A stretch of DNA of 64,000 nt from Paraspadella gotoi (Eukaryota; Animalia; Chaetognatha). The notes below the pieces were generated by a model. The model had not been told where the DNA came from. It searched no databases and saw nothing but the letters and a program-made list of their open reading frames with translations. The stretch spans positions 25,511,367 through 25,575,366 of the forward strand of contig CM119263.1 in NCBI GenBank assembly GCA_051294375.1. Reading direction: 5' to 3'. Positions 3,701 through 63,842 of the stretch are shown here, piece by piece. Both the position numbers and the translations under genes were made by a program. How positions within the stretch are numbered: the first letter of the stretch is position 1; every line of letters starts with the position of its first letter.

Positions 3701-6700
3701 GACGCCGATCAACGGCGTCAAAGTCGACGTGAAGATCGACGAACTTTGGACCAAAACCGTCATCACGGCGCCGACCAAGATCGCCGCGTATCCTTGAACC
3801 AACGAGTCGTTAATCAATGATAATCAAAATTGCACAAAGAAATAGGACGGCCTGATCATGTTTTAAGACATACCTGTCAGGAATGAGAAAGGTTCGGGAA
3901 AGTCGGCGTTGATATATCGAGCCACGCCCTTCGAAACGCTGCCCTTGAAAACGCTCTGCAACACTTTGACCAACAACAACAAACAAGAACAGAGAATCAT
4001 GAGCGAAAAGACGAGGACGACGACTCCGGCCGCCGCGTCGCTCAGCTGAGGGAACAGAGCCATGAAATGGTCGCCTGAAAACCATTATGATTAACCTTGA
4101 GGTTATGAATTTAAGAAAAAAAAGTAATCACCCCCCCAAAAAAATCTGCTTAATTGCAATTGGTCCAAAATTGAAAAATTGTCGCGTTAAGCTAAAAAGA
4201 TTATGATAGGAGGCTAATTATAAACCTATCGGCAGTTGGCCGATGACAATGATTTTTAGTTGCGCCGGGAGTACTCGCGGAGCAACTCCATAATTCATAA
4301 ATCACTTTTCGGTCGGTCGGTCGATATGCTGTCCATTACATTAAAAATACTTAATTCTTTATCAATTAAGTCTATTTTTGGTATGAAGGTAAGGGACCAT
4401 AAGACGTTTAAAGTGCATATATATCATACTTGTAAAGTCACGTGATCACCTTAAAAATCGATCAACTGACCCAAAATTTAATTCCTTGTTCTTTTGTAAT
4501 TTTTGCAGAGCGGGAAGGAACCTCAAATGTAGGCAAATGTTAGCGACACCTTTTGTTTTTAAATAAGATGAAGAATAAAAGATGTTTTCAGATGCAGTGC
4601 GCGTCGAAAATACATATAACAAAAAAATACACATAATAAGAAAGTCACTGCGGCGCAACACACATTGGAATCTCCCTTCTTGTTTTTTATCACCAGATAA
4701 TATACCGGCGACAAATGACGCAATAACCCAATGAAGCACTTACATAAAAAAAAAATAATTGAACGCATCACAAATTTGCGTGAATGACAATGACAATTAA
4801 AAGAGGCTTACATTGCGAGAGGACCGGCCTCTCTGAGACCAATTCTTCCTGGCGGCTTTGATTAGCACCATATCCAGAGTCGTTGATATTTGTCGCCGTC
4901 GAGTTGAGATCGAAAACTTCAATGGAAGACTTTTGCGTCAAGTTGGTCTCAACTGTTATTTAAATTAAATTTTAATGAATAAAAAGTAGTGAATATATTT
5001 TATTGTACAAAGGGGGGGAAGAAATACTAACTACGAGAAAATAGAAACAAAAATATGTACATTATGAAAAGTATGAAAAAACACCAACAAATGAATAAAC
5101 AAAATATAATGAAATTGGTACAACCAATATAAAAATTATCCATTCATTTAATAAATAAGCTATCTTGCCCCTGACTTTGGACAGGCTTTGGTGGTTTAAG
5201 GCCTCCATCACTCTTACAAGATAATGACATAGCAGGTCCCTGCAAGCTTTCAATAAAGACTCTCTCACAGTCTCGTTTATAATTATAATCATGGTAATTA
5301 TCCTTTCTTTTTCGTTGTTTGAGAGATTAACAAAGTTTGATTTTATTTTTTTGATGAAGGCTCGTATTGTGAGCCGAAACATGTCTGCTCTTGTAAAATA
5401 AAATTCGTTGCAAAAATAAAATCAAACTTTGTTAATAATTATAATCATAATATAACAAAAGTTATATAAAAGATCAAATAATTAATAATATTAAAAGTAC
5501 ATAAAAGCTTAATTGATCAATTATCAGCCATTTGTACGTCGTTCATCCACACTTCACGGCCTCACCTTCTTCAAGACGCAACGAGCGAAACGGCGTCCTG
5601 TCGTCGTCAATGGCAACGAAGCTCAATCTTTGCACGCAGGTCGTCTTTAGGATGCGTTTATCCTTCACCGAAGGGTCGCCCAAAGCGATGCCCTGGATCA
5701 CTCGGCTGTCCAACTGAAATCAAGGTACAGTGTGAACACCGATTAAACGTCACTGCACGGGAAAAATATTTTAAAAATTATTACGTATTATTGTTATTAT
5801 TGTTTTTATTAGATTATTATTTTTTTCCAAAGAAAACAAGAATAGTATCTGTGCCAGCGTCCCAAGCTTCCCGCCCTCCGCCACAAACGAAATCGTTGGA
5901 CAACAGCAATAGATCAATCTCACCTGTACGAACTTTTTGGTGAGCGGTTTGGTCAGTTTTTTGAGAAAATCGATCTTCAGTGATCTTTTCGCTTCTCGGT
6001 TTTGCATAGATTTCTCGTCCCCAACAAAAAGGTAGGTGAAATGTTGCAGGACGTGAAAAGCGCATTCTGTGGATCACGTGAGAATCGTGAATAAAAAAAA
6101 GGAGTCTTTGTTCGGGAATCTCGGTGCCATTACCCAGCGGAAGCATGACGCCGACGGTGAGCCAGTTGAACATGTCGTGGACGGTGGCGCCGGCGAAGGC
6201 GCGTTCGAACTCCAGCGTGTCGCCAGAGTGCGCCATCGATACGAGAGTGTTGGTGAAGGAAGTCCCGATATTGGCGCCCATCACGATCGGGATGGCGGAG
6301 GGAACCTCGATAACTGGCGGTAATTGAATTAAGTGATTGGTTGATTGATTGATATAGATACTATTCTCTGAAGAGAGAAAAAGGCATTATCTTTCCCAAA
6401 CCTATCACTTGACAGGAATTAAAATTTATTTCCGATTTCTTTTAAAAGGTTTGTTAAATATGAGCGCAAGTGAAGGAGCCTTAACCGATTGATTGTTTGG
6501 TCAAACTTCCTCAAATAACAATAGGAAGAAGGCATAATGAAGGACACGATAGAGTGATTTATTTTTGATTTTACGGCCGCCAGAGAATTTTTTATTTAAT
6601 AATTAGCAATACAATCACAGATTTTTACTCTGATCGTCTGGTCAAACTTACTTCCGGAGGAAACCATCGCCACGACAATGGAGGTCGAAGTGGATGAGCT

Positions 6701-10028: not shown

Positions 10029-18677
<8,649 letters not shown>

Positions 18678-31610: not shown

Positions 31611-34600
31611 CTACTTTTTCTTTTTTCCCTTCATCATATCCAGTTTGGCTTGAAATTCTTTCGCGCGCTCTCGATTTTTCTCTTCAAATTCCTGAATAGG
31701 AAATTGGGGTTTCGTTAAGAAATTACCCAGAATTAAACAACCCAGAATTAAACAACCACATAAGAATGAAGCCTCACCTTTTTTTCCTTTTCAAAGTTCT
31801 TTTTTTTAACCTCTTCCAATTGTTGAACCAGTCTATTCGTTCGCTTTTTCATTTCTCTGTTCTTTTGTTTAAAATTTAATTCAAGACTTTTCCCTTCCGC
31901 ATTCATCGAGCGTTTCTTTTTCCAATCGGCAACGCCCCCTTGACAGTTCCCGTCACTTTCTGCTCGAGACTGAGACGCCGACGAAAACGGGTCGCTTGAG
32001 GTCGTTGGTGATGATTCAGTTGTGCTCCGCGTTGGAGACTTTCGAGTAGCGATCGGCAACGCCTCAGTGCGGGAGTGAGCCTCGTTCACTAGTTTCTCCC
32101 GCGCCTCGATTCTTTTCCTAAAACGCTTTCCAGCTGCGCTTTCGTGGAATTCATCGGCGAGGCTCTTCGCTTGGCTTTCCTTGGCATAATCGTTATTGGA
32201 GTCGTAAAACCGGACCGAATATCCAGAGGTATCGTCGCCAACTCTTTGGTGGGGTTCCGTCGCTACTGGAAGTTTGGCATCAACGCCGAAAAAACTGTCC
32301 GCCGCCAGCCGCGAATGATCGTCCCCATCTCCAAGATCCGACCAATCTTTGTTACCGTCAAGCTCGTTGTTGTTAAGATCGCTGCTTCCAACAACATCGT
32401 CGGCATCCGCGGTCAGCAAAGCCCCAGAAGAGGTCGGAAGTGCTTCTAATCTGAAGAAAAGTAGAAAATAATGAAAACAAAAGTCGAAAAGAACAAAATA
32501 TTTAATAGGATTTCGTTACATACCTATCTCCAGCATAGTTCTCCACTTCGAGCTTTAGAATTTCCTTAAAGCCAACAGAGTCGTCGAGCTCTTCGTCCAA
32601 AGGGTAGGATGAGAGATCTATGGTTAAGTCACCTTCGGCCAACGTGTCTCCGTCGGAGTCGTCCGTCATCGTTTCCAGCGCGGAAGCTTCGTGCCTCTCG
32701 AATGAAATCAGCGATTCATTCAAAAGCGTCGAATTCGAGTCTGTGATATAAATAGATGTGAGATACTAACGGAGCAATAAAAAGAGGCGATCGGGTCGAT
32801 CCATTACTTCTTTTTTAAATGACCTTTAAGCTCGAAGTCTTTCGTAGGCGTCGACAGGCATATAGATTTAGGAGGAGGCGTTGGAGGTCGGGGATGTCGA
32901 GGGGGAGATCTCGACACTGGTGGCGGAACTCTGCAAAACAATTTTTAAGTAATATTGATTGGAGAAAAAAGAACTAGATTTCTCTAAACAGAAATTAAAC
33001 AATACTTAATAATTTTATAAATCATATGATAATCTCATTTGTTGTAACCTTTTCAGCGCTTGTTTTGAAGGCGGTTGTCTATCGGTTGACCGTTGCAACG
33101 ACGACACAAGATTCGTGTAAGCAGAACTAGGGACAAGCAAACTGTTGGACACTTGATCTTTCGGCGGTTCGTTAGTCATTTGTTTGTTTCCAACTTGAAG
33201 CGGTGGATATAATTCCGAGCCTTCGGAACTTTCTGACGCATATGAGGCGATCGAGACATCCGTAATTCCGAAGCTCGCCGAGTCCGCCAACGTTTGTAGT
33301 CGCGCGTCCACGTGTTCCTCGCCAAAACACTCGACAGCTACAGAGGATGAATGGTCTGCCTGAGAAGGATGATTGATAGATATGCCGTCCGGACATCGAA
33401 GTGATTGATCACACGACGTCGAGTCTTCCAGATTCTCGGGAACCGGCGAAATCTTTGGAGCAGAACCGTAAGCTGACCGGAGCTGCCGCCACCATTGTCT
33501 CGCCACGGCCTCGTTTCCTGAATAATCGGTCTAATAATCGAAATGTCCCAACTTATAAGACTCAAAACTTACCGGTAGTAGATTCCACAAGTTGTAGGAC
33601 GTATTCCTCTGGGAGCACTTTCGGAAGATCCAAAAATGAAACGGAGGAGACGGCGCTGACTTGCGAAGAATTAGTTGGCGATAGCCTTGCCTCTTTGCCC
33701 CCATTGACAGTTACGAGGGAAGACCGCACTTTTGTTGTATCAGTGGATGTATCACTAAATAAAATTTCATCGTTCTTTAAACCTGGAATCAAGACTTCAA
33801 AACATACATCATCATAATACTATATTCAAATTTACCTTTTCATTTCGAGATACATCGAGGATCGATCGCCTAAAAAATGTAACAAAAATTATTCGTAATG
33901 TCACCTTCGAACTTTTAAAACTAAAAGGAAGCAGCACGTTCGATCGATTCGAGCAACTATTAATATTTCCAAAATCTAACCACTTGATATGTTTACTTTA
34001 GGCTTGAGAACTCTTAGAAGACGTAATAAGCTTGTACATACTGACTAAGGATGAAGAAAATAAACACAGTCACGATTTTTAAGGTTTGCAGGGAGTGGTT
34101 TAACGGCAAAGTCACGGCAGAATTTGAGAAGCTTAATATTTGATATAAATTTGTTGTGGGCATGGCAAAGTTCACCCCGCCTGCAAATATAGCATTTTAA
34201 GTCATAACTCAGTGGTTTATTGAGTAAAACCAACTCATACGGCTTCAATCCCAAGCCGATCGCAAATAAATGGGAAGTGTGAGGACGGCCATAGACCGTT
34301 TCGGCGGCATGGAAAACCCAAAAACCTGGTATAAAGCCCAGGACCTGTTCCAAAGCTTGCGACGGGTTAAAAAAAATTAAAGAGACCTCAATCCAGTTAA
34401 TGGCTTACCCACAAAATATATAAAAATAAAATGAAAAAATCGTTTAAATTATAAAAAAAAACTATACCATTGGCCTTGAGGATGAGTTTAAACAATATTA
34501 CAATTAAAAAATTTTTTTCTCTTTCTTATAAAAAGAAAAAAAATATAGGTTGGCGACAGCTACCGCCGCGACAAATTTCAAATAAGTGCAATGAAATTTT

Positions 34601-37600: not shown

Positions 37601-40600
37601 ACTGAAGCTGAAATAAGGCCATGAAGCAAATTGATTGGTTTTACAATTACTTTTTCAAATTTTAATACTCAGAGAGTATGTGAAAGAAACAAAAAATTGC
37701 TATCTCTGAAACCTATAAAATCTAAAATCTAAAAACGTATAGCCATAAAATATTTAATGTGGTAGGTAAGCAAAATCAGATCAAAGTAGGATTTTTTAAA
37801 ATGCCAATTAAAGTTTTATTAATTTTTTTACTAAAACTGAACTCGCTTATATATATAAAATTGTTTTGTAAATATGTAGCAATATGAAACGTAAATCTAT
37901 ATCCAAATTTTTAGCTTCCTATGGTTACACCCTTTTACAATTTCCAATGGTAAAAAAGCGTGACGACGACAACAACAGTCACGAAGAAGTATACTTTTAA
38001 GATTTTATAGGTTTCAAAGATGGCACTTTTTTTGTTCTTTGAGGTCCTGTCTGCCCTATGGTGTACTACCTTAGATAAGATTCATTAATACAAACATAAT
38101 ATAAGTACATGAGCAATTAGCTTTCCTTAAATATAATGTACTCGACACAAATTAAGAACTCACCCGCTAATGGAGCTTGAATTTGCACTTCTTTTGGATT
38201 TATCTACTGGTGTCGAAGTCTTTGATTCTGCAGGTTGTCGCCCAGGCCCGACAGTCAATGGCGTAACGGTGGATGCTGAGGGAATCGAACCTTTTGTAAA
38301 GGGCGTGGCTGGAGAAATGATCGTCACTTCCGGTGAGTTGGCATTTGCGTCGGCTATCCTCTTGGGTAATTGCCGCGGAGAACTTTCAACAGTCCGGATA
38401 GAGATTGGAATGGCTCGGGAAACGGCGCAGGTCGAAAATGAGGGAGTTGAAGAGGGGACCGACTTGGGAAGAGAGCCGTTTTGCACGATTGATGATGAAT
38501 CCGTTTTTGACAAGGCATCGTCACTAAATTTAACAAACTACAGTTTACGCAATATATACAACTAAAATCCACCAACCGTTTATCAGCGGCCATTGGTGCT
38601 GAAGGCAAGTCATTCGCCTACCAACCCAAAGGTCCGGGGTTCTAGCCCAGTGGTCGCCTAGAAGTTAAGAGGGACGGGGCGCTTAACCCGCCTGTAACAC
38701 GGTATTACAGCCTTATCCGAAACTCAGGGACTGCTTATAATGAGCGGTTCTGTCACTAACTCATAATAATTACTGCCTCTTCAGTGGACGTATTTAGGTT
38801 ATTTTTTTAGAAATACCTCGATAATTTTCCAGATTCCAGAGAAGACAGAGTTTCCGATCGAAGCAACTTCCATTTTTCGGCCGGAAGATTATGCCTCGAT
38901 GTCGAGAAAGCTTCAGAAATGGATTCCATATCTGACAGCAGAGCATTCGGTTCTGCAAGCGTATCCAGTGTGGACACTTCGCCAGTCCGATGAAGGATAC
39001 GTTTTTCGAATGGAGAGGTCAAAGGTTCTGCCTGAATCTTTGATATCAAAGAACTTGGCGGGTCAGCGGAGTGCAGGGTTTTCCAACGGTCTTGTAATTG
39101 TTGCGACAACTGTTGCTTCAACGCTTCTACTTGAACGAGTCTCTGCCTCAGATCCTCGTGGCGTCGCGTCCAAAATTCGTCTTCTGCGTAGCCAGAAGCC
39201 GCGTCAGACACGTTGACGACGGAAGTCTAATTTAAATCGAAAAAAATATTTAAAGTATAAGAATCATCGCAATCGCATAAAAAAATTATGGACCCATGAC
39301 AAACTTTTATACTCAAACAAAAAATAATATTTGTGTTTTATAATTAACAAACTCGGCTTAATATATTAAAAAAAAATAAATAAAAATGAAAGGAATGAAT
39401 AAAATGAAATGAAAGGAATCGAATTAAATGAATAAAATTTAACTTAATGAAAGAAATGAGATAAATAAATTGTATTGAGTGAATAAATTTAAATGTAAGA
39501 ATTGAATTAATTAAATTGACCGAATTTAATTGGTCTATTTTAATTGAAGAAATTGAAGGAATAAATGTGTAAGAGATAAATAGAAAATCTTAAAGTATAA
39601 TGATCTTGCCAGACGTTACTATCAAAGAAAATTAATGAAAAAATCTGAAAAAAAAACCGAATGATTGATGCGATAACGAATTATTTATGTAATAGTAATT
39701 TATTGATTTAATAGTAATTTATTGATTGATGTAATAGTAATTGATTAATTGATGTAATAGTAATTGATTAATTAATTTATGTAATAGTAATTGATTGATT
39801 TTTATAATACTAAATCGAATGTTTTGAAATAAAAATTGAATTCTAAATATAGTATCATAAATGGTAAAATTTTTTTTTTGGCATTGTTATTTCAAAAATA
39901 TTTAATAATACAATTCCCCACAATATGTACCCTTGGGACATACTATATATTATATAATTAAAAGAAAAAGAAAAAAATAAATTTGTTTTATTTATATAAA
40001 ATGTAAACAAACAAGATTTATTGCATCAACGCATCAATTTTTAAGGACCTTGATGATGAAAATATATATCTAAATTTTTAGCTTCATACAAACACAAATA
40101 ATACTAGAAAATGCGATCTATAATTTGGAATGCTGACGACGACGACGACCTCCACTGGGACCATCGTCACAAAAGGAATGATAAAATAAGTAAAAGAATA
40201 CGTAATCAAAGCATTCAAAATGATTAAATTAATGCCTAAAGTATTATCTCGTACAGAACGAGAAAAATACTCACCGAGTCGGAGAGATCTATGATTGCGT
40301 CCTCGCGCTCTTCTTCTAGGCACAATTCCTCTATTTTTCTAGAGAGGACCTCGAAACCATTTAAATTTTGAACATTGGATAAGCTAAGTTCGTCGAGGTT
40401 CGAAGGCTGTGGCGGACTTTCAAAACTCGATTCCTTTCGCGAGTCACGGAAGTCTGGTGTTGACAATGGAACGCTCTCGAAGGCCGGCGTGAAAAGGGGC
40501 AATGGAGACTCGGATTCGAAACGCACGGATTTAACTCCGATCTTTTCCTTTTCCTTTTGGGGCGCGGACAAAATAGAAGGACCAGCCATGGCGGAGAAAG

Positions 40601-43527
40601 TTTTAATGTTCGAAGACTTGGAATCCTCGGGAACCTGGTTAACTTGAGCTTCAATGCGGCGATTTAGTCGCAGCTGCCGCTCGACCAACTGAGACTTAGC
40701 GCGCTCGAACTGCCGTAAGCTAGTCTGGTGGCGCCTGATCAAGTCCCGTTGGTAAGCACGAACACCAATCAGCCAGGAGGGCGTTTCTTCGTCACTGGCG
40801 TCAGTCGTTGAAGGCTCTTCTTCAACATCATCGATAGAAGACAAAAAGTTTCTGTTTAGCAAGTTGTCGTTGTTGTTGCCGTCAATCTTTTCCAAGTTTT
40901 TTTCTATTTCTTTTCCCATTGATGGAACCTCGATAGCTTCGTTAGTTTCATCCAGTCTTAGAGGTTCCTCCTCCATCAACTTTTCGGCGGGATCTTCGAC
41001 GAATTCGCTTTGTGTCTCCTCAGATTTTAAAGGGCTAACATTATCCAAGTCAGACTGTACGTCGCTGGACAAGTTGGATGACGATGGTTCGCTTCTACTT
41101 TCGGTGTTTGCTTCGCCGTAAGCGATTGGGATCTCGAAACGAGTTTTGTTGTCCGACTTATCTTCCACAATCGGCGTCGAGACGCGTTCCTCCTTTTCCA
41201 CGCAATGCGTTGCCGAATTTTCCGTGGTTACAGCCTTTTCAGCGGCCAAATCGTTCATAGTCGAATTATTGAAGGATGTCGACGCAGGTGGGGCAAATGT
41301 CGACGTTGACTCATCGAGATTAGAGGTTTCTCCGATCGATCGCCGCCATTCGATACGTTGATCGACGATCCGCGTAAGAAGGTTGTTCAAGTCAAGACGA
41401 TCTTTCGCCATCTTTGTTATATTTACGGGGTCCTCCATGCGGGTAGAGCTGAAATATCAACGTTTTTTCACTCAATTTTTTTCAACTTTTTCACGAGTTT
41501 AAATCATGTTACTTACTCAGAATATATAACTGATGACTCATTTTCCCCCTCAATATCGTCGTAGAGAAGAATCGACTCATCTGGTTTCAGTCGGTGCTCG
41601 GCGTTTCGCAGCAACGCATCCTCAAAAGCATGCTCCGCCGCCAGCTCCAATTGTTCACGCTTGGCGAGAATTTGGTTCACCGGTAAAACGATTTCGGGTG
41701 CCATCTGAAAATATCACAAATAGTTCGGCGGAAAATAAAATCGGAAAATAAAATCGCATAAAAAAAATCGTGGACCCATAACAAACTTTAATAAGAAATT
41801 GAATGAATAAAGAGATAAAGAGATAAAGAAAAAAAAAGGGGAAAAGATGGTAAAATGATAACATGCGCGACTGCGATGCTTAACATCACCAATCAATATG
41901 AAATTTGGATATATATAAATGATTTAGGTTTTTACTACAAAAAAAAAAATCTTTCAGATTAAAAAACAAGGTTGCAAATGACGATTTTTTTTAGCGGCGG
42001 GGTGTCGCGTGTCACCTGGTATTTGGACAATCGTTACAAAAGTAAAAGTAAAACGAAGTTCCTTCACAATCGACCTCGGGATTACCTCGTGTAAATTAGC
42101 TCCTCTTCGTCTCCGATCATGCAGAAGCAGCTCGTCCAAATTCTCCAAGATATCTTTGCTCTCGCGTTCCGTAACAGCTTTGTTAAGCGCCGCACGTCCT
42201 CTTTCCCGAGCGCGCTCCAAAAGCTCAATAACTTCGCGCCCTCGATCCGCTGCTCTTGCGGACACCGCATCAGAAACATCTCGAGCTTCAGAGACCGCGG
42301 TTCCAACAGGGTCAGCTGAAAAAATACGGAAGTTGAACTTAACAATGTTCGTTTAGTCAAGGATCCTCTCCTCCTACCTTTTTCAATTAGACAGGATCCA
42401 AATTGTTTTTCGGATTGAATTTGTGGACACGGAAGTCTTGCGTCGGTCAACACGACCGGAGAGATTTCGGGTTGGTTTATAATTTCGGGCTCGATTTGCG
42501 CTGTAAAGGTATGAAGACTATGAAACATTTGGTTTTTCAAAAGACGCTAAAACCGCAGTCGGCGAAAGTAAAATTTAGCCAATAATTTTGCCCAAAATTA
42601 CAGATGTTACAAGCTGCAGTCATTCTGGCCGAAATGAGTTAAACCTGTTGGGCCGAAATTTTTACCGACGCTATAACGGGTATAACTACCCGTACCCAGG
42701 TACCCATCGAAAATTAAGAGGATAATAACCCAGAGCGCATGCAATAAGATCATACTTGCTGGCAAGGCGGCCACTCTCTTCGCTCTCTCCTTTTCTTTTT
42801 TCTTGACTTTTTCGCGGATGTCATTTTTTCTAGAGACTTGTTCATTTTCAGCCTTCCTTTTTTCACTAATTTTACGCAAAGCTTCTTTTCCACGGTCCTC
42901 TACGTTTGAGTCACACAATGGTGTTTCCGTAATCAGAAATTCGTTCTGAAAAAAAAATAATTTTTTTGTCAAAGTATAAAAAAATAAAAACCGAATCACA
43001 ACTTTAATATACCACGGTAAAGGCCAGATGATGTGCGTGTCCTAACTCTGATGCGCAAAGCCGTAATTCGGCTTCTTTTACTTTCAATTCTTTCTGCGTT
43101 TTTTCTACCCATTCTGCACGAAGGTTCGCGGCCAAGTTTCGCTCCTGAACAGTGAAAAGTTACCAAGCAAAAAATCAAAGATCATGATATAGGGCGATCC
43201 CGGAGTTGAATACGCTCTGGAGGCTTATGGGAAAACGAAGAAAAAGTTCGTTTCTTTACGGAAAAGAAAATTTAAGACTAACAACGTTAAAAACGTTGAT
43301 AAGCTTCACGGGCGAAGGATTTCTTTTTTTTTAATATTATTATTTATAGTATTTATTTTTTTCGTTGCCTGCTCTACTTTCTCCTTCTTGACGGCCTCTC
43401 TGACTCGCTGAGCTTGATCTTTCGCTTGTTGACGGACTTGTTGAAGACGGAGGCGTCGTAAGCGAGAACGCTCTGCCCTTAAGGCTTCGTCACGTTCCGT
43501 CGATGTAAGGTAATATTTTTGAACCAT
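31611..43527 (-). CDS. CEP295: CEP295/Ana1-like centriolar protein (about 16 exons)
   Basis: N-terminus ERDEALRAERSRLRRLRLQQVRQQAKDQAQRVRE matches the conserved CEP295/Ana1 N-terminal motif. C-terminus EMKKRTNRLVQQLEEVKKK...|EFEEKNRERAKEFQAKL...* matches an ALMS-type motif. The long low-complexity middle is spread over ORFs at 40236-41438, 38807-39211, 38160-38513, 37244-37534, 33015-33792 and 31748-32723. Confidence 0.8.
34672..37153 (+). CDS. Class A (rhodopsin-like) peptide-type GPCR nested antisense in a CEP295 intron
   Basis: Small exons give TM1 GTLGN, TM2 STYFCSLAITD, TM3 LILVAINIDRT (DRY variant), TM5 FYSIIPATMILILNWRII, TM6 VSISIAFLVLVTPW and TM7 SNCGINFALY. Splice junctions are GT-AG; the junction before TM6 is not resolved. 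Confidence 0.85.
35611..35899 (-). mobile_element. HINE-like family 2 copy inside an intron of the nested GPCR
   Basis: AACAAGAACGGTAATTC...GTTGCGCCGCAGTGACT at the left and AGTTGCTCCGCGAGTACTCGCGGCGTAACT at the right. Confidence 0.68.
38586..38771 (+). mobile_element. tRNA(Gly)-derived SINE-like element
   Basis: Head GCGGCCA...TGGTCGC (38586-38657) can form an acceptor stem. It has a B-box-like GGTTCTAGCCC and a tRNA-Gly-like TCGCCTACCA loop, but a broken anticodon stem. An unrelated body and a short (ATA)n tail follow. Confidence 0.55.
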
Positions 43528-46435: not shown

Positions 46436-46670
46436 TGTTGCAATTTAAAAAAATTATGCAAGTTGAAAAAATGACGCAAGTTAAAAAAAGTGATGCAAGT
46501 TAAAAAAAAGAAGCAAGTTAAAAAAATGATGCAAGTTGAAAAAATGATTCAAATTGTAAAAATGATGCAAATTGAAAAATTGATGTGAGTTGAAAAAATG
46601 ATGTGAGTGGAAAAAATGATGTGAGTGGAAAAAAATGATGCAAGTTGAAAAAATGATACGAGTTAAAAAA
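46436..46670. repeat. Minisatellite with an ~18-19-bp unit GATGCAAGTTGAAAAAAT
   Basis: About a dozen imperfect tandem copies. Confidence 0.85.
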
Positions 46671-46881
46671 ACTTTTAAAAAATATTGTGCAAAAAAATCT
46701 TAGAAAAAACTGTTTTGAAATTTTAACATTTATTGATTTAGTACTAGTATAAATATGGCCTATTGCGTAAATTGTAAAATCTATTATAAATTATTTTATT
46801 ACATAAATTTTCATTAGTATAATGTTGTTCGTTCCTCACTTTTAGAATTTTATTAAAGTTAAATTTAGAAATTTTACTAAG

Positions 46882-46938
<57 letters not shown>

Positions 46939-47935
46939 CCGACCCAACAAGTCTTTCCGCGTCACCCCAACCTTCTCCACCTCCCCATCGTCCCCCACCC
47001 CCCCAACCCTCTCAACAAAAATTCCCGGTCTTCCTTTGGCCCCATCTAGGCACGCGGCGTCGCGGCGTCGGCGCCACCCGCCCCTTCTTCCGGACGTCAG
47101 TTCCGGCCGGCGCTTCCATAAAAACCGTCTTTGTTTTCGGCCACGCGCAAAGATTCACGCAGTCACGCCCCCCTGACATCGCACACTCAGCGTCAAACCC
47201 CACCATCACGTCTACCCCATCTTTATCCCCCTAATAAGACCGCTAAACCCCATCGATGCTCTTTTTTTTGTTCACTCAAGCGAGAGATTCATTAATCCTC
47301 TTCTCTTCGACCTCCCACCAACTAAGCCTAAGGCTGACTGGCCTTTGGTTAGTCTATAGACTATACTCACCATTATTCCCCAAAAAAATGGAGAGAGAGA
47401 GAGAGAGGGGGGGAGAGATAGAGATATAACTATAAATTCATACATGTAAATATATGAATAAAAGTTTTTTTACATAATTCTTGGCTGCCATCATCTTTCT
47501 CACTTAGAATGGGCTTAGGAGTCTGACCATGCCAATTTTTTCAATTAATACATTTTTGGCAAAAATAACGGTCTATGTTTTGCCTCATGATTTTGGTTTT
47601 CGAACAATTTACTTTTCATTTACATACTTTCCCAGAATCATTGTTAATTTGTTAAATTCCGATTCTACAGATTACGAAATCATCGAATAGCTCTACCTCG
47701 CGGAAAAAATGTAGATTTATAAAAAACAAAAGACACATGAACAAGTTTGATAATTATAAACTTCCTCGCACTCCTGAATCGATTAAAAAAGTTTGAGTGA
47801 CTAATAAAAATAGGTCAATTTTCACTGACAGCAAAAACCGCAAAAAAGCATGACGAAGCAGAAAAAATTAAAACCAGTTTTTATAAATTTGGAATATGGT
47901 GATATAAATCCTTTCTCTTTCGATGTTTGAAGTAG

Positions 47936-48098
47936 TTAAAGAAAGTTGGATTTGAGTGGAATGTGACAACGATTAGATTTTATTAGCATAAAACAGAAAT
48001 GTTAACGCTGATGAAGGCTTGCAAGCAAAGCCGAAACATGTCTGTTTTATGCTAATAAAATCTAATCGTTGTCACATTCCAAATCAAACTTTCTTTAA
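47936..48098 (+). ncRNA. Minimal type I hammerhead ribozyme motif inside an inverted repeat (Penelope-like pseudo-LTR remnant)
   Basis: CTGATGA-A-GGCTT/gcaagca/AAGCC-GAAAC-AT-GTC at 48008-48042. Stem I AACG/TGTT is possible. Flanked by perfect 40-bp inverted arms (47958-47997 and 48041-48080) that extend imperfectly outward. Confidence 0.75.
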
Positions 48099-49358
48099 AT
48101 TTGGAATAAAAAAAAGTCATGCAATTCTGCAGATTCCTTGTTCATCATTTTCTATTTTATAATGGAATTAAGTACCTCAGCCCAAACAGATAACAGATAA
48201 AAAATATTTATTAAAATATCGTTTGTGAAATGTGCTTACCTCAATTTTTCTTTAAATAAATACAATTTTACAAGGATAAGAAAAAAGAATCGACTTTTTC
48301 CATTTTTTAAAGTTTTTTCTCTCTTTCCATTTAGGATCCTAAAACGGCTCGGAAACAATGTTTTTAATATCATACATACTTGAAATATTTCCGAATTAAG
48401 TCATTTTCATTTTATTTTTCTCCCACTTCACATTCCTCGTTTCTTGAGGTGACGCAATCTGATTCGATCTTTGCCGCAGCTGCTGCTTGTCGCTGCTGCA
48501 CACGCGGGAAGGCCGCTCAGCTGCAGCCTGGAAAAATAGATCCGTTGCGAAGGAAACCGGTTCATTCGCTTTTGCGAATTCGCTCGTGGTTGTTGTTGTT
48601 GTTAGGACTTTCTAGGACCAAGTATCAAATGAAAGCGGGTTAAATAAAATGTAATTTGTTTTAAAAATTATTGACTTTCCCGACTCAGGGTTCATTCACA
48701 CTTCCCAGGCTCAGGGCTCCATCAAAATTCATAAGATAAGGCTTTTAACTGCTTGATATCGAATCAATTTATTCGGGAGAAATGAAAAGTTCTTGTTTTA
48801 AAGCCAAATGATGAGGAAGAAAAAAGGATTGAAATCGAATTTGAAAGCAACGAGACTTACTTTCGCCCAAAGGCAGACGACGACGACGATGACGACGATC
48901 GATTACTCACCTTTCGTCTTTCAAGCGACGAAGGCTGGTCCAGACTCGATCGTCTAATGTCGTTGTGTCGTTGAGATTGTTTTGCGGCGGCAAAAAGTAA
49001 AGTTCGACGGTCGAGTTCTTTGAAATTAGTGTCGAAATTAGTTCCTCACCTCGAATTACTCTGTTCGTGGACTTACTTTAAATAAATTAAACAATTTTTT
49101 TTATTTTAAATGCAATTCTTAAATTAATAATTTGCGTCATCGTAATCTTTAAAATGTTTTTGACTATTCTTTTGATTCAATCACCGACGCAACTATCGAC
49201 AACCATTAAATAAAAACGACAATTCACGATTCAACGCGCAATTCTGCAACAATCCCCTTCTCTTTGTCTCCACCCAATGATTCATTTAAATTTCTCCTCA
49301 TTTACCCCCCCCTTCTTCTACAATCCCACCATCTAATCACATTAAAAAGAAAAATAAG

Positions 49359-52300
49359 ATGAAATCGTTCAAGACTAAATCGAAAAAGGAAGAGACGGAG
49401 TCATTCATCCCTGACTCGACTCGTTTCCTGGCGTCGAGGCCACCGAAGGCGCCGGGTCGCACTCCCGTCGCCCATTTCCTCAACAACCAAGGTAAAGTAG
49501 GCGCCGCTGGCTCCATCGCCGGCTCCAGCGATTCCGGCTTCTCTCGGCGATCCTCGATCAATTCCGGCATGGTCGGCTCTCGACTCTCCGGCAAGGACGA
49601 CGACTCTCTCGATTCCGGCTTCTCGAATTCCTCTCGGCCTTCCTCGAAGTCTCTCTTCCCGTCGAACACCCGTTCCTCCGACCTCGGCTCCACGCTAGAG
49701 GGCGACGAGCTGGTGCGCTTCGCCTCCGTGGCGCTGCTGTCCGCCGACAACAGCATCGGAGACGACGCCTTTCGCCGACTCCAGCGCGAGAAGAACGGTC
49801 TCCATGGCAACGGATATCGCGAGAAATGCTTCGTCGACTATTTTCGCGTCACCGACGAAAACTTTTTTGGCGTCACCCACGCCGGCGTCTTCGGACCGGC
49901 GCCGCTGAAATACGTCGTCGTCGTTCAGGCCGAGGATCTCGTCATTCCCGATCGATACGAGCGCCGTCTGGGGAAGTACTTGAGTGTCCTGAGTCTCCGC
50001 GCCCCCGTCGGCGTTCGCGTTCGCGTCACGCCTGTCGTCGTTGGCTCGGCGACCGTCACCAGTGTCAGCGCCCTCCACGAAGGGCGCGTCCCGGCCAACG
50101 TGATCGTCGAGACGCTGACGCCGCTGCAACACGTCAACCCGCAAAACTTTCTAGTCGACGCTTGTGACGTTCCGCAGAGTCTCCTCGAGGACTTTGCCAT
50201 GGGAGGACTCTCTCACTGGAGGTCAAAATTTGGCGAATGGGCGGACGATTTGCCGCTGGAAAACCCGCACATTTTCTCGGCTCCTCACTACAGCAATTCT
50301 TTTCTCGACACAGTTATTCTATTCCATCCGCACCAAATGCTCAAATTCTTGCTGCGGCCTTTGGCTGAAGATAAGTTGGAGCCTTTCTATCTCGAGCTTT
50401 TCCACAGTCGAGAGGCGACGGAAATGGCGATGAATCTTGCGAAACGAGGCTTGATCACCGAGGAAGCGTTGTTCCACTTTTTCTGCACAGAATTAGGGAT
50501 GAGATCGAGCGACGACGATTCCACCAAAACATTCGAAGTTGTGATGAACCACATTGTGGACAAAGGGATCGTTTATCCGGTGCCGGAACCCGCCGAGTTG
50601 TACTATGCCGTCAAAAGATGGTTCTTCGATCCGTTCCTGATTCGCCGACGATCCAATCCCATCGAAGCCATACCTCTCCACATCAGTTCTTGCGACAAAA
50701 AGATCGGCGTCGAGATTCGAATCCCAGATATTCATCGCGTCCCAGATGACGTCTTCTCCTTGATCAGCACCGTGTTGCACGAGCACTGCAACGGTCGCAT
50801 CGAAGTAGATTCCCATTCGGCCAGCGGAAAGTGCGGCAAGGTCTCCGTCTTACTGCAGAACGGCGCCGTCAACGCGAGCAACCCGTTCCAGTTGCGTCAT
50901 TTCGCGGGAACGACGTTTTTGGTGTTCGTCTCTGGCGGCGATGTGGGTTTAGTGTGGATCATGGTCATGGCCATTGTTGACTCCATCAAAATGATCCTCT
51001 CAGAGGGCTGGCCGGGTCTGACTTATCAATTCGTCCTCTCCTGCCCCAGCGTGCTACAAGGTTGTCAGACCTCGACATCGATCTCGGACCACGGACTCTT
51101 GCATTCGAGCATCGTGACCCAAAGCCAACCTTATTTTTGTCTCAACTGTCAGCGGGATATCGACCCAGAGCTCATGAGCCCCGTTTCCAATCATACCCTC
51201 GATCGATTTTCGCGAAGTCTCGAAGGTTACGAGAACGAGACGGGTCTGGACGGATATTTCGTGAAAAAATCCAAGTCGAAGCGAACCTGGCAATGTATAA
51301 CGAGATGCTTTAAACCTTGTGAAAAAGAAGCTGAAGAAAACAATGAAAACAACAACGAAGAAAACAGTCATGAGAGCAAAGAAAAGGCTCGACTGACGAG
51401 GAACATGCAACCTCAACTCCGCAGCAGCGTCAACTACGAACGAAGGCGTACAGAAGAAGACAGCGACGACGGATCGAGTCTTGATTCTTCCGTCCACGAG
51501 GCTGGAGAAGTTTATCCTCGAATTAGTCAAATCAGTGACGTCGCTTTAAATGGTCGAGCGGCACCTCAAGTAATGGCGGAAAGCAGCTTACCAAGTCAGA
51601 TCGATTACCTCAAAGCACCCACCAACGATGGAGCCAGAAACCAGAATGAGTATCATTACGATTTTCCTCCATCAAGCAACGTCACTCCCACGGACCGCTT
51701 CGCCAATCAACCCGTCAGAAACCACGCATCACCTTCAAACATGGGCACTTTCGCCTTTTCCCCGCATGAAGATCACGGCCATCGGTCGATGGCCAATTGG
51801 CGAGAGACGCAACTCGCCATCAAGCATCTCGCCAACAAGAGTTATCCTTGTCTCTGCACAAAGACCCAACTCATGAACGGTCAAGAGATTGTGAAGCCGA
51901 GGGCGACGGCCATTCTTCTGCGATACAACCCGCATTCCGGATTCGGGATTGTACTGACCAATTTTCACGTCTACGACCGCGTCTACCCGGACGAACTCTA
52001 CGCGACTTTTACTTTTTACGAAAAGGAAGACCTGACGCCGGCGTCGCTCTCCCATTATCTAGTCCCCTTCAACGGGCACATCCCGGGCGTCCACAGCCCC
52101 GTCGACGGCACGGATCACATCTTCATGGAGATGAGGCCCACGAGCGAGCAGTTCGACCCTGATCTTCACCCCGTGGGTCACCTTATTCCCCGCACCTTTC
52201 ATCCCAGTTTTTGGGTCGAGAACGACCGGCTCATCCTTGTCGGGTATCCCTTCAGCAATCCCAAGCTGTGGGAGATTGTGCAGACCCAGATGGAAATCAC

Positions 52301-52721
52301 GGGAGCCGTGGCCTTGGAGGTGGTCAAGGACGCCAAGTATTACCTCGACAACGGCCTCGGCGGCGTCGTCAGCGCCGCTCACGAGTTCCTCACTTTTCGG
52401 AGACCCAACCCGAATAACGAGGTCGTCTTGAGAGCGGCTGACATCGTCGCCCATCCAATGCTGCTTCCGCTGGAGCTGCAGATCCTGCTGGACCGGCGAC
52501 GCATCAATCTCAAGTGTCTCTCCCGATGGGGTGCCTCTGGAGGCCCCCTGTTGACGACCAAGCAGCGGGGGTCGCGATGCGAGGCGTTGGTTGCCTTTTA
52601 CGCCGGAGGATTTCCCCACGCGGCCACGAGGGGTCAGGACTTTGTACTCGAACACGGGGTCAAGATGCAGTACGTGCAAGTAGAGAGGATCGCCGGGGGT
52701 CAGCCAGAGAGGTTGTTTTAA
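49359..52721 (+). CDS. Intronless 1120-aa protein: degenerate Roc-COR (MFHAS1-like) module fused to a FAM111-like trypsin-fold serine protease
   Basis: Uninterrupted 3.36 kb ORF with coding-like composition. Roc-like YVVVVQAEDL...LGKYLSVLSLRAP...VVVGS; COR-like DTVILFHP, VPDDVF and ILSEGWPGLTYQFVLSCP...CLNC. Protease motifs LTNFHV (His870), GTDH (Asp919), LILVGYP, GASGGP (Ser1060) and LVAFYAGG. Confidence 0.8.
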   Translation: MKSFKTKSKKEETESFIPDSTRFLASRPPKAPGRTPVAHFLNNQGKVGAAGSIAGSSDSGFSRRSSINSGMVGSRLSGKDDDSLDSGFSNSSRPSSKSLFPSNTRSSDLGSTLEGDELVRFASVALLSADNSIGDDAFRRLQREKNGLHGNGYREKCFVDYFRVTDENFFGVTHAGVFGPAPLKYVVVVQAEDLVIPDRYERRLGKYLSVLSLRAPVGVRVRVTPVVVGSATVTSVSALHEGRVPANVIVETLTPLQHVNPQNFLVDACDVPQSLLEDFAMGGLSHWRSKFGEWADDLPLENPHIFSAPHYSNSFLDTVILFHPHQMLKFLLRPLAEDKLEPFYLELFHSREATEMAMNLAKRGLITEEALFHFFCTELGMRSSDDDSTKTFEVVMNHIVDKGIVYPVPEPAELYYAVKRWFFDPFLIRRRSNPIEAIPLHISSCDKKIGVEIRIPDIHRVPDDVFSLISTVLHEHCNGRIEVDSHSASGKCGKVSVLLQNGAVNASNPFQLRHFAGTTFLVFVSGGDVGLVWIMVMAIVDSIKMILSEGWPGLTYQFVLSCPSVLQGCQTSTSISDHGLLHSSIVTQSQPYFCLNCQRDIDPELMSPVSNHTLDRFSRSLEGYENETGLDGYFVKKSKSKRTWQCITRCFKPCEKEAEENNENNNEENSHESKEKARLTRNMQPQLRSSVNYERRRTEEDSDDGSSLDSSVHEAGEVYPRISQISDVALNGRAAPQVMAESSLPSQIDYLKAPTNDGARNQNEYHYDFPPSSNVTPTDRFANQPVRNHASPSNMGTFAFSPHEDHGHRSMANWRETQLAIKHLANKSYPCLCTKTQLMNGQEIVKPRATAILLRYNPHSGFGIVLTNFHVYDRVYPDELYATFTFYEKEDLTPASLSHYLVPFNGHIPGVHSPVDGTDHIFMEMRPTSEQFDPDLHPVGHLIPRTFHPSFWVENDRLILVGYPFSNPKLWEIVQTQMEITGAVALEVVKDAKYYLDNGLGGVVSAAHEFLTFRRPNPNNEVVLRAADIVAHPMLLPLELQILLDRRRINLKCLSRWGASGGPLLTTKQRGSRCEALVAFYAGGFPHAATRGQDFVLEHGVKMQYVQVERIAGGQPERLF

Positions 52722-53270: not shown

Positions 53271-54740
53271 TATTATAATATAATAATAATAATAATAATA
53301 TTTTTTTTGTTTGGTTCTCAAGTATTATGGTTAAAAGTAAATATAAATTGCTTTATAGTCGTTTTGACTCGTCGCTTCGACGAGTTCGGAAACGTTTCGA
53401 CTTGGGAGACATCTTTTTAACTTACAAAGTATTGATCTGACTTGTAAAATATCGTTTTGACGCGTTTTTTTAACTAGCAATATATTATTTTGACTAGCGA
53501 AATGTTTTAATTAAGTAAATATAATTTTAACTCACAAAATAAGTTTTAATCCTATACCTATACTATCCCATATGCATGTCTGTGATAAAAGGGGCATCCA
53601 TTCGTAATCTTGGTGGTTACTTCCCTTTCAAGGTCACGTAAAAGCCGAGTTGGAAAAATTCGTTAGAATGATGTTATATTCATTATGTCTTTCTAATGTT
53701 TATCTTTGAGTTAATTGTTAATTTGTCTGATTGTCTGATAATAACAAAGTTCTGTACTTTGGTTTTCATAAAAAAAAAATCCATAAAATATCTGTACTTA
53801 TTTTCATTTTTATGTATTAATTTCGATTTAAAAAATGAGAATTATAAAATTTTCGCTGATACTGATTTTGATGTTGAGTTTTCAAAAATTATTATTTTTT
53901 GATTAAATTACAGTTACAATTAGTTTTATCATTTGATAAGCTATTTGATTAAAATAATAATAATAAACAGCGCCGGTATAAATAAAAATATAATCATATT
54001 TGGCGCCATTTTAATTTGTTCTTTCTCTATTTGGTTCATAATTTTTTATTTTTCATAATTCTTTATAGTTTATAAGATTTCTTTAAAAACAAAAGGTGGC
54101 GCCAGTAGTCGCTTAGATTTGATTTTTAACAAATGAGCAACAAACTATAGGCAAGTTATATGCGTTTTTAACATAAGTGGGACATACCGACGGACAGACA
54201 TACCGACGGACCGACCGACCGCAACTAAAATGCTATGTGATAAACTTCCAAAAACGTCAACAACCAGAAAAAGAGCCGAAATTTCGATATCGCGCGATAC
54301 GATGCCATAATTTCCGATATTTAAAACTGTGATTTGTTCGCTCGGAGTTAGTTCACATTTCCAGAAAAAGTTTGCCCAGTGATTTTCGAATACGCATCTT
54401 TTTGGCGGCACGAATTTCGTTTTTGAAATTTCGTCTTTGAAATCTTAGAGGGCGACAAATAATTATAAAATATCGCACGATTTTATACCAAATACAAATT
54501 GAAAAAAGTTCGGACTAAAATGGTTTCGATGATACAGTAGCATTGCGCCGTTACATCAATGAAATAATTATTAATCATATTAATTATTTATAAATTAGAT
54601 GTTCTGATATAATACAGCTAGTAGAGTGGAGCACTCAAGAACAAAAAAATTATTTGAATGATTGAACAAGGATATTTAGATGTGAGATAGTATGATTAAC
54701 TAGTAATATATTTGTAGTAATATTTTTATAAAATAGTAAA

Positions 54741-54909
54741 TTTCAGGAATAACAGATTTTTAATGTGTAACAACGAATTTTTATTTCATAGGGACATGTT
54801 TCAACTCTGTGGTTGAGAGTCTGATGAAAACTCTCAATCACAGAGTTGAAACATGTCCCTATGAAATAAAAATTCGTTGTTACACATTAAAAATCTGTTA
54901 TTCCTGAAA
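54741..54909 (+). ncRNA. Hammerhead motif at the centre of an ~80-bp-arm palindrome
   Basis: CTGATGA-A-AACTCT/caatcac/AGAGTT-GAAACATGTC at 54821-54857. Arms 54741-54820 and 54830-54909 are near-perfect reverse complements. Confidence 0.72.
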
Positions 54910-55403
54910 CACAAACACAACGAAAAAAGAAAGAATCACAACAAAATAGTAAATTTAAAAAATAATTTTTTTAAAACTTTTAATAAAGATTCTTCATAAA
55001 AAGTTTAATAAAAATATAAAACATGTTATCAAAAGTTATGTCATCTTCAGCATTTAAAATGAGAAAAAAGGTAAAAATTCATGACTTTTTATTTTCTGTA
55101 GTGGAAACTTATATATGTTAAAATGTTTCAGTCATTTTTTGCGATCTAAACATTAAAATATCATTTAACATATTTTATAAAAGTTTCTTTGTTTTTTATG
55201 GCGAATCCAAATCTGCTCTTAAAAATAAAATAAAAATTATTTTGAAATTTAACAATTTTATAAGGATATTACTACATAAATAATTGAATTTACGATACTG
55301 TTATGCGAAAAAAAAATTTCAAAGGATTTAAAATTTGTTAATTATTTGTCCATAGGCAGCAAAAAAAACAATGTTCAATCGCTCAATCTTTTCATCAGTC
55401 TAT

Positions 55404-63227: not shown

Positions 63228-63842
63228 ATGACGGATGGCACTGGCGCCGGAGGCGGCGGGGTGGACGACCTGGCCGACCTTCAGATCAGCATGAATCGCA
63301 CGACCGACGAGTCGCTCGAGTCCACGCGGCGCATGTTGCAGCTGGCCGAGGAGAGCAAGGAAGCGGGCATCTCCACTCTCGTCAATCTGGACGAACAGGG
63401 GGAGCAGCTGGATAGGATCGAAGAAGGCATGGACAAGATCCACGAGGATATGGGCACCGCCGAGAAGGCGCTGGAAGGACTGGAGGCCTGCTGCGGCCTC
63501 TGCGTCCTTCCGTGGCAGAAGCGCCAGAAAAAGGGGGACGAAGAGGCGTGGAAGAACGAGGGGGGCCAGCCGACGGGGAGTCAACCCCAACGCATCATGG
63601 GTGACGGTGTGATGATGAGCGGGAACTTCGTTACCAAGGTAACCAACGATGCGCGAGAGGACGAGATGGAGCAGAACGTCGCGGAGGTCAGCAACATGAT
63701 CGGGAACCTCAGGAATATGGCCATTGACGTAGGGTCGGAGATCGACAACCAAAACAGACAAATCGACCGAATAACCAATAAGGGAGCTTCCAACGAAACG
63801 CGGGTCAAAACCGCCAATGAAAGGGCGAACAAGCTGTTGTAA
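63228..63842 (+). CDS. SNAP25: SNAP-25 (Qbc-SNARE), single coding exon
   Basis: TTDESLESTRRMLQLAEESKEAGISTLVNLDEQGEQLDRIEEGMDKI, Cys cluster ACCGLCVLPW, SQPQR linker, and TNDAREDEMEQN...IGNLRNMAIDVGSEIDNQNRQIDRI. Confidence 0.97.
   Translation: MTDGTGAGGGGVDDLADLQISMNRTTDESLESTRRMLQLAEESKEAGISTLVNLDEQGEQLDRIEEGMDKIHEDMGTAEKALEGLEACCGLCVLPWQKRQKKGDEEAWKNEGGQPTGSQPQRIMGDGVMMSGNFVTKVTNDAREDEMEQNVAEVSNMIGNLRNMAIDVGSEIDNQNRQIDRITNKGASNETRVKTANERANKLL

Follow-up and report, generated by a model that had tools for sequence, protein, structure and literature searches.

In this article I discuss a single open reading frame (ORF) from the chaetognath Paraspadella gotoi, located at 49359..52721 on the plus strand of a 64,000-nucleotide stretch of DNA (hereafter the window; NCBI GenBank assembly GCA_051294375.1, contig CM119263.1, positions 25,511,367 to 25,575,366 of the forward strand), which encodes 1120 residues without an internal stop and is laid out as a tail, a likely pseudo-Roc domain, a likely COR region, a linker and a serine protease of the S1 (Trypsin_2-like) type. 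The evidence leans, if only slightly, towards a protease with a conserved His-Asp-Ser triad that sits behind a likely Roc-COR module devoid of GTP motifs, the module serving as a nucleotide-independent scaffold and the enzyme being switched on by pairing or clustering; since the scaffold would not depend on nucleotide, such activation is likely to take the place of a GTP cycle. The idea grew out of a sequence-only reading of the window by a model that had proposed a pseudo-Roc-COR fused to a FAM111-like protease, and translation of 49359-52721 on the plus strand reproduces its 1120-residue frame, its motifs and its numbering of the triad as H870, D919 and S1060.

That the C-terminal domain (residues 799-1120, 51753..52718, plus strand) is a trypsin-fold protease is well supported. 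Its motifs begin at residues 849 (ATAILL), 866 (LTNFHV), 882 (ATFTF), 917 (GTDH), 958 (LILVGYP), 1058 (GASGGP) and 1077 (LVAFYAGGF), and the predicted catalytic residues, all encoded on the plus strand, are retained wherever a relative covers them: H870 (51966..51968) is His in 8 of 8 relatives (alignment A7), D919 (52113..52115) is Asp in 6 of 6, and the predicted nucleophile S1060 (52536..52538) lies within RWGASGGPLLTTK, a motif identical in 4 of 4. A bacterial Trypsin_2 profile, built on 82 domains that were motif-selected from 100 fetched loci, scores 14.1 bits on residues 810-1120 and picks up the His, G-x-P and Ser motifs in that order, compared with 2.9 for the best of 300 shuffles and 0.8 for the best of 127 decoys. 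The family alignment matches bacterial Trypsin_2 with an HHalign probability of 96.7 (E 4e-10) across 87 columns of the first barrel, a level reached by 0 of 30 block shuffles, and the second barrel is recognized by its motifs only. Among 11 relatives scanned with Pfam, P0016 (E 1.4e-4) and P0011 (E 0.013) have a Trypsin_2 match, neither of which passes the curated threshold, and the Atlas model of P0016 aligns with Trypsin_2/Trypsin clusters at template modelling (TM) scores of 0.53-0.54, all Atlas evidence in this article concerning P0011 and P0016 only. HHalign, profile scores, Atlas rows and residue conservation therefore all bear out the fold and triad first proposed from the letters. The distance from His to Ser is long in this protease, 190 residues compared with 156 for FAM111A and a median of roughly 111 for the 82 bacterial references, and the domain contains a family-specific insertion at residues ~975-1045 (limits approximate; 52281..52493, plus strand) that is kept in P0002-P0005 and P0009. 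In a quick protease tree (136 columns, long branches) six family rows group together with a support of 98, and no placement is given. Single-sequence AlphaFold models were unusable, with a mean predicted local distance difference test (pLDDT) score of 31 for the protease and 34 for the Roc-COR part, and Foldseek with these models returned noise only.

The protein also belongs to a family. Twenty relatives, partly redundant and all from ENA or JGI contigs of 0.5-3.5 kb, were collected, and none carries an informative name (P0014 was not looked up). Comparing residues 810-1120 with shorter proteins showed that 4 of 1736 candidates were related, at 44-58% identity and with the same C-terminus; HMMER, run in full over 1.84 billion representatives, found 12 matches at E <= 0.001, one of which was already among those four, and cluster look-ups for 10 of the HMMER matches added 5 further members. 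Together the relatives tile residues 106-611 and 788-1119, with 1-105, 267-274, 612-787 and 1120 uncovered. The close set (40-58% identity) is made up of fragments, each corresponding to the Roc-like, the COR-like or the protease part, and the distant set (25-29% identity), whose members run 628-758 residues in a single frame, includes P0011, P0017 and P0018 (two 90% clusters), in which the COR-like region, the linker and the first half of the protease follow one another in one frame. Because these distant proteins carry both modules in one ORF, the fusion is conserved and not peculiar to the Paraspadella genome. Four relatives end in DLR and two in RPVR, splice-like boundaries that hint at a eukaryotic origin. 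One distant relative appears to be divided into a Roc-COR part and a protease part (P0015 and P0020, on contigs both 2685 long); P0018 from the same cluster is fused, and the apparent split may be an assembly error or a broken allele. Word-index searches for full-length relatives returned 0 of 7011 and 0 of 7997 candidates, which is weak evidence; JGI metagenome contigs yielded no relatives (281 pattern matches were rejected and 3 further matches were chance); and prokaryote genomes, viral contigs, phages and plasmids yielded none in searches that detect close relatives only.

Residues ~118-611 are, in my estimation, quite probably a Roc-COR fold closest to MFHAS1/DAPK1-type proteins. On the plus strand they divide into a likely pseudo-Roc domain (residues ~118-270, 49710..50168), identified by its position and by comparison with P0011, a likely COR-A (~275-430, 50181..50648), which is 43% identical to P0006 and is covered by the Atlas rows for P0011, and a likely COR-B with terminal cysteines (~431-611, 50649..51191), in which WPGLTY begins at residue 551, CLNC at 594 and ELMSP at 604, and where C569, C594 and C597 are kept in P0011 and P0015. 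In a glocal test none of 150 block shuffles equaled the COR-B score of this protein, whereas 8 of 150 real-protein decoys did. Indirect structural evidence comes from P0011, where eight of ten Atlas structure rows (1-8) fall on the first ~500 residues: rows 1 and 2 are an MFHA1 and a DAPK1-like cluster, the others are three bacterial Roc/Roc-COR clusters, a mollusc cluster in which 21% of the members have COR-A, and two ankyrin clusters, and rows 2-6 carry Roc or COR families. Rows 9-10 are Trypsin_2 clusters on residues 582-758, and the sole Atlas feature match (0.91) is an unnamed 70-member cluster of ~1929 residues with Trypsin_2 in 100% and Roc in 26%. Of the resemblance to MFHAS1 that had been suggested, the part that held is this top Atlas row; no Pfam match on the protein itself accompanies it, and where the suggestion quoted ARVP for MFHAS1, the ORF has GRVP at 242. 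When a bacterial Roc profile was applied, none of 150 shuffles and a single one of 150 decoys scored as high as the Roc part of P0011, and the Roc part of this protein was at chance.

The module has lost the GTPase motifs, as had been anticipated: neither G1 (GxxxxGK[ST]) nor G3 (DxxG) occurs anywhere in the 1120 residues, both are also absent from four relatives aligned over the Roc-like part, and P0008 and P0013, each ~40% identical to that part, likewise lack G motifs. Since the G3 region is the most conserved part of ROCO proteins (PMC6337361), the module is very likely not a GTPase. The G-protein alpha-like exon(s) elsewhere in the window (10603-11111, plus strand; weak Pfam G-alpha match) score on the Roc-COR profile at 10603-10704 (E 0.005) and this protein does not, which is as expected if its G motifs are gone. 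The ORF contains no leucine-rich repeat (LRR), and an LRR profile run over 1551 six-frame window segments gave two weak matches elsewhere (E 0.12 and 0.42).

How far the protease resembles FAM111A is a separate question, and the answer is mixed. Using the numbering of PMC10920703, F538-G539-S541 of FAM111A map to W1057-G1058-S1060, an aromatic-G-x-S loop, and H556, F560 and E573 map to Y1081, F1085 and E1098 with identical spacing, so that F and E lie 4 and 17 residues after the His556 equivalent. This S1-pocket pattern occurs in 5/5 family members and 0/82 bacterial references, counts to be read with the knowledge that its anchor was picked after the sequence had been seen, that its Gly was taken from a motif given in the sequence-only reading and that its His is Tyr here; there is modest support from these positions for a FAM111-like, chymotrypsin-type S1 pocket formed by W1057, F1085 and E1098. 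The two enzymes would further share a Trypsin_2-type S1 domain that is intracellular (FAM111B likewise, and presumably this protein), a similar His-Asp distance (49 here versus 54) and a conserved segment ahead of the first strand. Unlike FAM111A, this protein has no ubiquitin-like (UBL) or PCNA-interacting peptide (PIP) region; His556 is replaced by Tyr, the loop that follows Ser is longer, His and Ser are ~35 residues further apart, and there is no sequence match to the solved FAM111A domain. Where FAM111 proteins carry UBL domains (vertebrates) and a PIP box (mammals), it has a charged linker and the COR-like module; invertebrate FAM111-like proteins also lack UBLs, and no Roc-COR partner for them is mentioned in the available text of PMC9798293. 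The likeness asserted from the letters finds modest backing in the residue spacing of the pocket and is weakened by LVAFYAGGF, which is partly specific to this protein, relatives having G[IM]YVRGF in 4/4 at that place, and by the fact that no search matched FAM111A; no FAM111 cluster is named among the Atlas rows shown for P0016 either. FAM111 kinship is possible on these comparisons, and the domain is filed as Trypsin_2-like with FAM111-like pocket features and not as a FAM111 member.

Several results count against the interpretation as a whole and should be set beside the evidence above. For the protease, neither the whole protein nor its 7 segments has any Pfam match, PDB sequence searches with the protein gave chance matches only, and among PDB entries the family profiles match no protease, FAM111A included. 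The PDB searches with the domain, P0016 and two family profiles (E <= 10) likewise found no FAM111A, and because HtrA was missed as well they are too insensitive for the FAM111 question. The triad counts (8/8, 6/6 and 4/4) are pooled from partly redundant relatives, none of which covers all three residues, and the Ser of the distant set lies outside coverage. One allele in run X9 encodes G861R (window 51939), 9 residues before H870 and on the strand preceding the catalytic His, where relatives retain Gly. For the Roc-COR module, the Atlas model of P0011 is mediocre (predicted TM score 0.38, TM by query 0.35-0.43) and describes a protein just 25% identical to this one; of its rows, 2 and 3 alone score high enough to justify naming a family; and it is by MAFFT only, without a significant pairwise match, that the Roc part of this protein can be tied to P0011. 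Against 72 bacterial Roc-COR proteins (of 120 recovered), the family gave an HHalign probability of 0.8 that 4 of 45 shuffles equaled, with 159 columns aligned in COR-A to COR-B order, and 12 glocal tests were mostly unremarkable, the whole module of this protein being matched by 10/150 shuffles and 57/150 decoys. Using the same set, hmmsearch found no local profile match to this protein, HHalign with the single sequence stayed at shuffle level with an in-register, non-significant match to COR-A, and global HHalign was uninformative. There is also a hydrophobic 19-residue stretch at 529-547 (2.1 on the hydropathy scale); a transmembrane reading of it was set aside, the relatives being amphipathic there.

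The segments outside the two modules suggest how such a protein might be controlled. The Ser-rich N-terminal tail (residues 1-111, 49359..49691, plus strand) is likely disordered, with a hydrophobic fraction of 0.2 and no LRR, and contains at residues 83-91 (49605..49631, plus strand) an SLDSG / DSG-x3-S motif, which I take to be a candidate beta-TrCP-type phosphodegron. The same five residues and the DSG-x3-S pattern open the distant relatives P0015 and P0019; the pattern arises in shuffles at a frequency of 0.08 for this protein and 0.02 for P0015, and it was noticed after the fact. The charged linker (612-787, 51192..51719, plus strand), low in hydrophobic content, aligned by no relative and only about 100 residues long in P0011 and P0018, is likely disordered and a candidate autocleavage region. 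Just ahead of the protease lies a conserved helix-like segment (810-826, 51786..51836, plus strand), positioned like the alpha-1 dimer helix of FAM111A, in which E/D816, L819 and A820 are kept in 5/5 aligned relatives from the close and distant sets alike. As there is no signal-peptide-like N-terminus, the protease is presumably cytosolic.

In FAM111A an alpha-1 helix within the protease domain itself dimerises and orders the oxyanion hole, the dimer being needed for substrate cleavage but not for self-cleavage (PMC10920703), and COR-B mediates dimers in bacterial Roco proteins (PMC6337361). By analogy, the protease would carry its own dimer switch, the helix at 810-826 aided by COR-B ordering the active site as in FAM111A, while the nucleotide-free Roc-COR scaffold would raise the local concentration of the protease, place it, or restrain it until a partner binds; self-cleavage in the 612-787 linker could then release the enzyme, and a phosphodegron in the tail could hold the protein level low. 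Taken jointly, cytosolic location, active-site ordering through helix and COR-B, linker self-cleavage and a tail phosphodegron make a tentative scheme that I would place a little short of even. Its role is likely that of a conserved intracellular stress or signaling protease and not of a fast-changing pathogen sensor, since the protease end is strongly conserved and there is no sensor domain.

The gene itself is intact and likely animal, its neighbors including SNAP-25, a Na+/Pi cotransporter exon and the G-alpha exon(s). In six runs of one organism (X1, X3, X5, X7, X8, X9) the ORF is covered by contigs for which no indel is listed within the frame, and in X1, X3, X7 and X9 one contig reaches from end to end of it; several of the six may have supplied the window itself, so that they are not independent. 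X1, a possible RNA run, gave contigs identical to those of the DNA run X3, and X10 and X11 contributed none at 80% likeness, results that carry no information on expression. Its third-codon-position GC is 0.67, and 2-kb blocks of the window have 29-52% GC. Eleven allelic changes fall within the ORF, 5 silent and 6 missense, and their nonsynonymous to synonymous ratio (pN/pS 0.36, P = 0.087) is a weak sign of selection; the strong sign is the conservation of the predicted protein in other organisms. No second copy was detected inside the window by tblastn, and no paralog-like contig over the ORF was found in runs X5 and X7 at 80% likeness, a search in which a filter drops records. The description of the gene as intronless holds for the genomic frame only. 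High-copy repeats flank it at window 46500-47070, 47920-48100 and 53900-55000, with summed contig depth up to thousands compared with ~25 over the ORF. Horizontal transfer or contamination was considered and set aside, the gene lying amid animal-type genes and repeats and no prokaryotic relative having been found.

Elsewhere in the window, a complete-looking SNAP-25 gene of 204 residues occupies one frame at 63228-63842 on the plus strand (Pfam E 4.6e-9). Animal SNAP-25 genes usually contain introns, and intron loss or retrocopying may be common here given this single frame. The minus strand carries a Na+/Pi cotransporter exon (5817-6386, Pfam E 7.8e-5, below cut-off) and long acidic or coiled-coil-like exons of 406 and 255 codons (40236-41456 and 31748-32515) with no significant Pfam family.

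The explanation modeled on the sequence-only reading differs from the one preferred here in making COR dimerisation the specific trigger of a FAM111-type protease that acts as an innate-immune or cell-death effector, and I regard it as unlikely. The COR-B dimers of bacterial Roco (PMC6337361) and the dimer requirement of FAM111A for substrate cleavage (PMC10920703) speak for it, as do the trypsin or caspase effectors on bacterial Roc-COR proteins in predicted conflict systems (PMC8195603) and the ROCO-TIR proteins of molluscs (PMC9334734). But since FAM111A dimerises through a helix of its own protease domain, activation driven by COR is one option among others; the segment matching that interface is conserved in this family, COR and the protease lie apart with 175 residues of unconserved linker between them, the frame includes neither an LRR nor any other sensor, and a protease end 44-58% identical across organisms is unlike a fast-evolving effector. 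More improbable again is that the protease is real and residues 118-611 are not Roc-COR, or have eroded to another scaffold, in which case the protein would represent a new protease family whose N-terminal region is unclassified. This would account for the lack of any Pfam Roc or COR match on the protein (whole and as 7 segments) or on the 11 relatives, for the chance-level outcome of most Roc-COR sequence tests and for Atlas TM values < 0.5, but it sits poorly with Atlas rows for P0011 that agree on ROCO-type clusters from several taxa and assign Trypsin_2 precisely to the protease part, and with 159 columns that align in the order COR-A to COR-B.

Two further explanations concern the state of the gene and of the enzyme. 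The window copy could be a retrocopy, perhaps truncated or silent, of an intron-containing parent that may have more N-terminal domains, which would fit the introns suggested by the splice-like ends of relatives, the absence of any in this frame and the weak pN/pS signal; I find this very improbable, for 3.4 kb of frame remain open and none of the conserved residues has been lost, distant relatives too run 628-758 residues in one frame, and the neighboring SNAP-25 gene also occupies one frame, so that intron loss may be common in this genome. The slimmest chance of all goes to a pseudo-protease, in which a trypsin-like fold blocked by the insertion or by a misplaced Asp would act as a binding scaffold only: the unusually long His-to-Ser distance would suit it, and no model brings the triad together (the single-sequence model having a mean pLDDT of 31), but His, Asp, Ser and the oxyanion-loop Gly are invariant wherever covered. 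The scaffolded, clustering-activated protease remains the reading I prefer.

Where, then, does this protein fit among known systems? The statement that no ROCO protein with such an effector had been described does not survive for ROCO plus a trypsin-like protease, a combination already published for brown algae and other members of the stramenopile, alveolate and rhizarian (SAR) group (PMC11378527) and for bacteria (PMC8195603). Brown-algal group 3 and other SAR ROCOs carry a C-terminal peptidase (IPR009003) and share with this protein the order of Roc-COR followed by a trypsin-fold protease, but group 3 keeps LRRs and a detectable Roc (PMC11378527), and the fusion discussed here likely arose independently of the SAR forms. 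In bacterial AP-GTPase (Roc)-COR conflict proteins, trypsin is among at least 24 C-terminal effectors and occupies the same slot after Roc-COR; those proteins have N-terminal LRRs and swappable effectors (PMC8195603), whereas this family has neither an in-frame LRR nor G motifs. MFHAS1/MASL1 and DAPK1-like ROCOs provide the top two structural rows of modeled P0011, and MFHAS1 shows a similar COR-B-like end with W-x-G-L and cysteines, but it is a GTP-binding protein with LRRs whose COR is followed by no enzyme (PMC6337361). HtrA/DegP (S1C) differs in its N-x-G-N-S-G-G loop, which is RWGASGG in 5/5 family members; the protease here also has an aromatic residue before the oxyanion Gly, an insertion, and an end 60 residues past Ser that leaves no room for a PDZ domain. 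It scores on HtrA no better than on other Trypsin_2 domains (medians of 2.7 and 2.5 bits), and the family does not fall inside HtrA in the poorly resolved quick tree.

Animal ROCOs come in up to forty domain combinations (PMC11378527), one of which could be a ROCO-protease as far as the accessible portion of that source goes, and the animal architectures given in the available parts of PMC9334734 and PMC4104024 are without a protease. No animal Roc-COR-protease or pseudo-Roc family was found in the literature searched, a scope that leaves out most subscription journals and supplements. An LRR-less, GTPase-dead and likely animal ROCO-protease that is invisible to Pfam appears to be undescribed, although its general design is known from other kingdoms, and with algal and bacterial ROCO-protease fusions already on record it comes as only a modest surprise. 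ROCO biology centers on a Roc-COR GTPase cycle that controls an output enzyme, as in LRRK2, and a scaffold with an intact protease and no GTP motifs is a natural test of what Roc-COR can do without nucleotide, with a protease output that is easily assayed. As the family is invisible to Pfam and to surveys based on Roc profiles, ROCO counts in print that rest on such profiles would miss it, and if the protease is of FAM111 type, the known settings of that disease-linked enzyme would be wider. It is conceivable, though I would not call it probable, that this is an old unannotated animal family descended from a ROCO of the MFHAS1 type that gave up its LRRs and its GTPase, acquired a FAM111-type protease and became a pseudo-GTPase-scaffolded intracellular protease switch; if true, kinase, death and TIR domains would be joined by a fourth kind of animal ROCO output, and there would be a clue to the role that FAM111-type proteases had before UBL domains were added to them in vertebrates.

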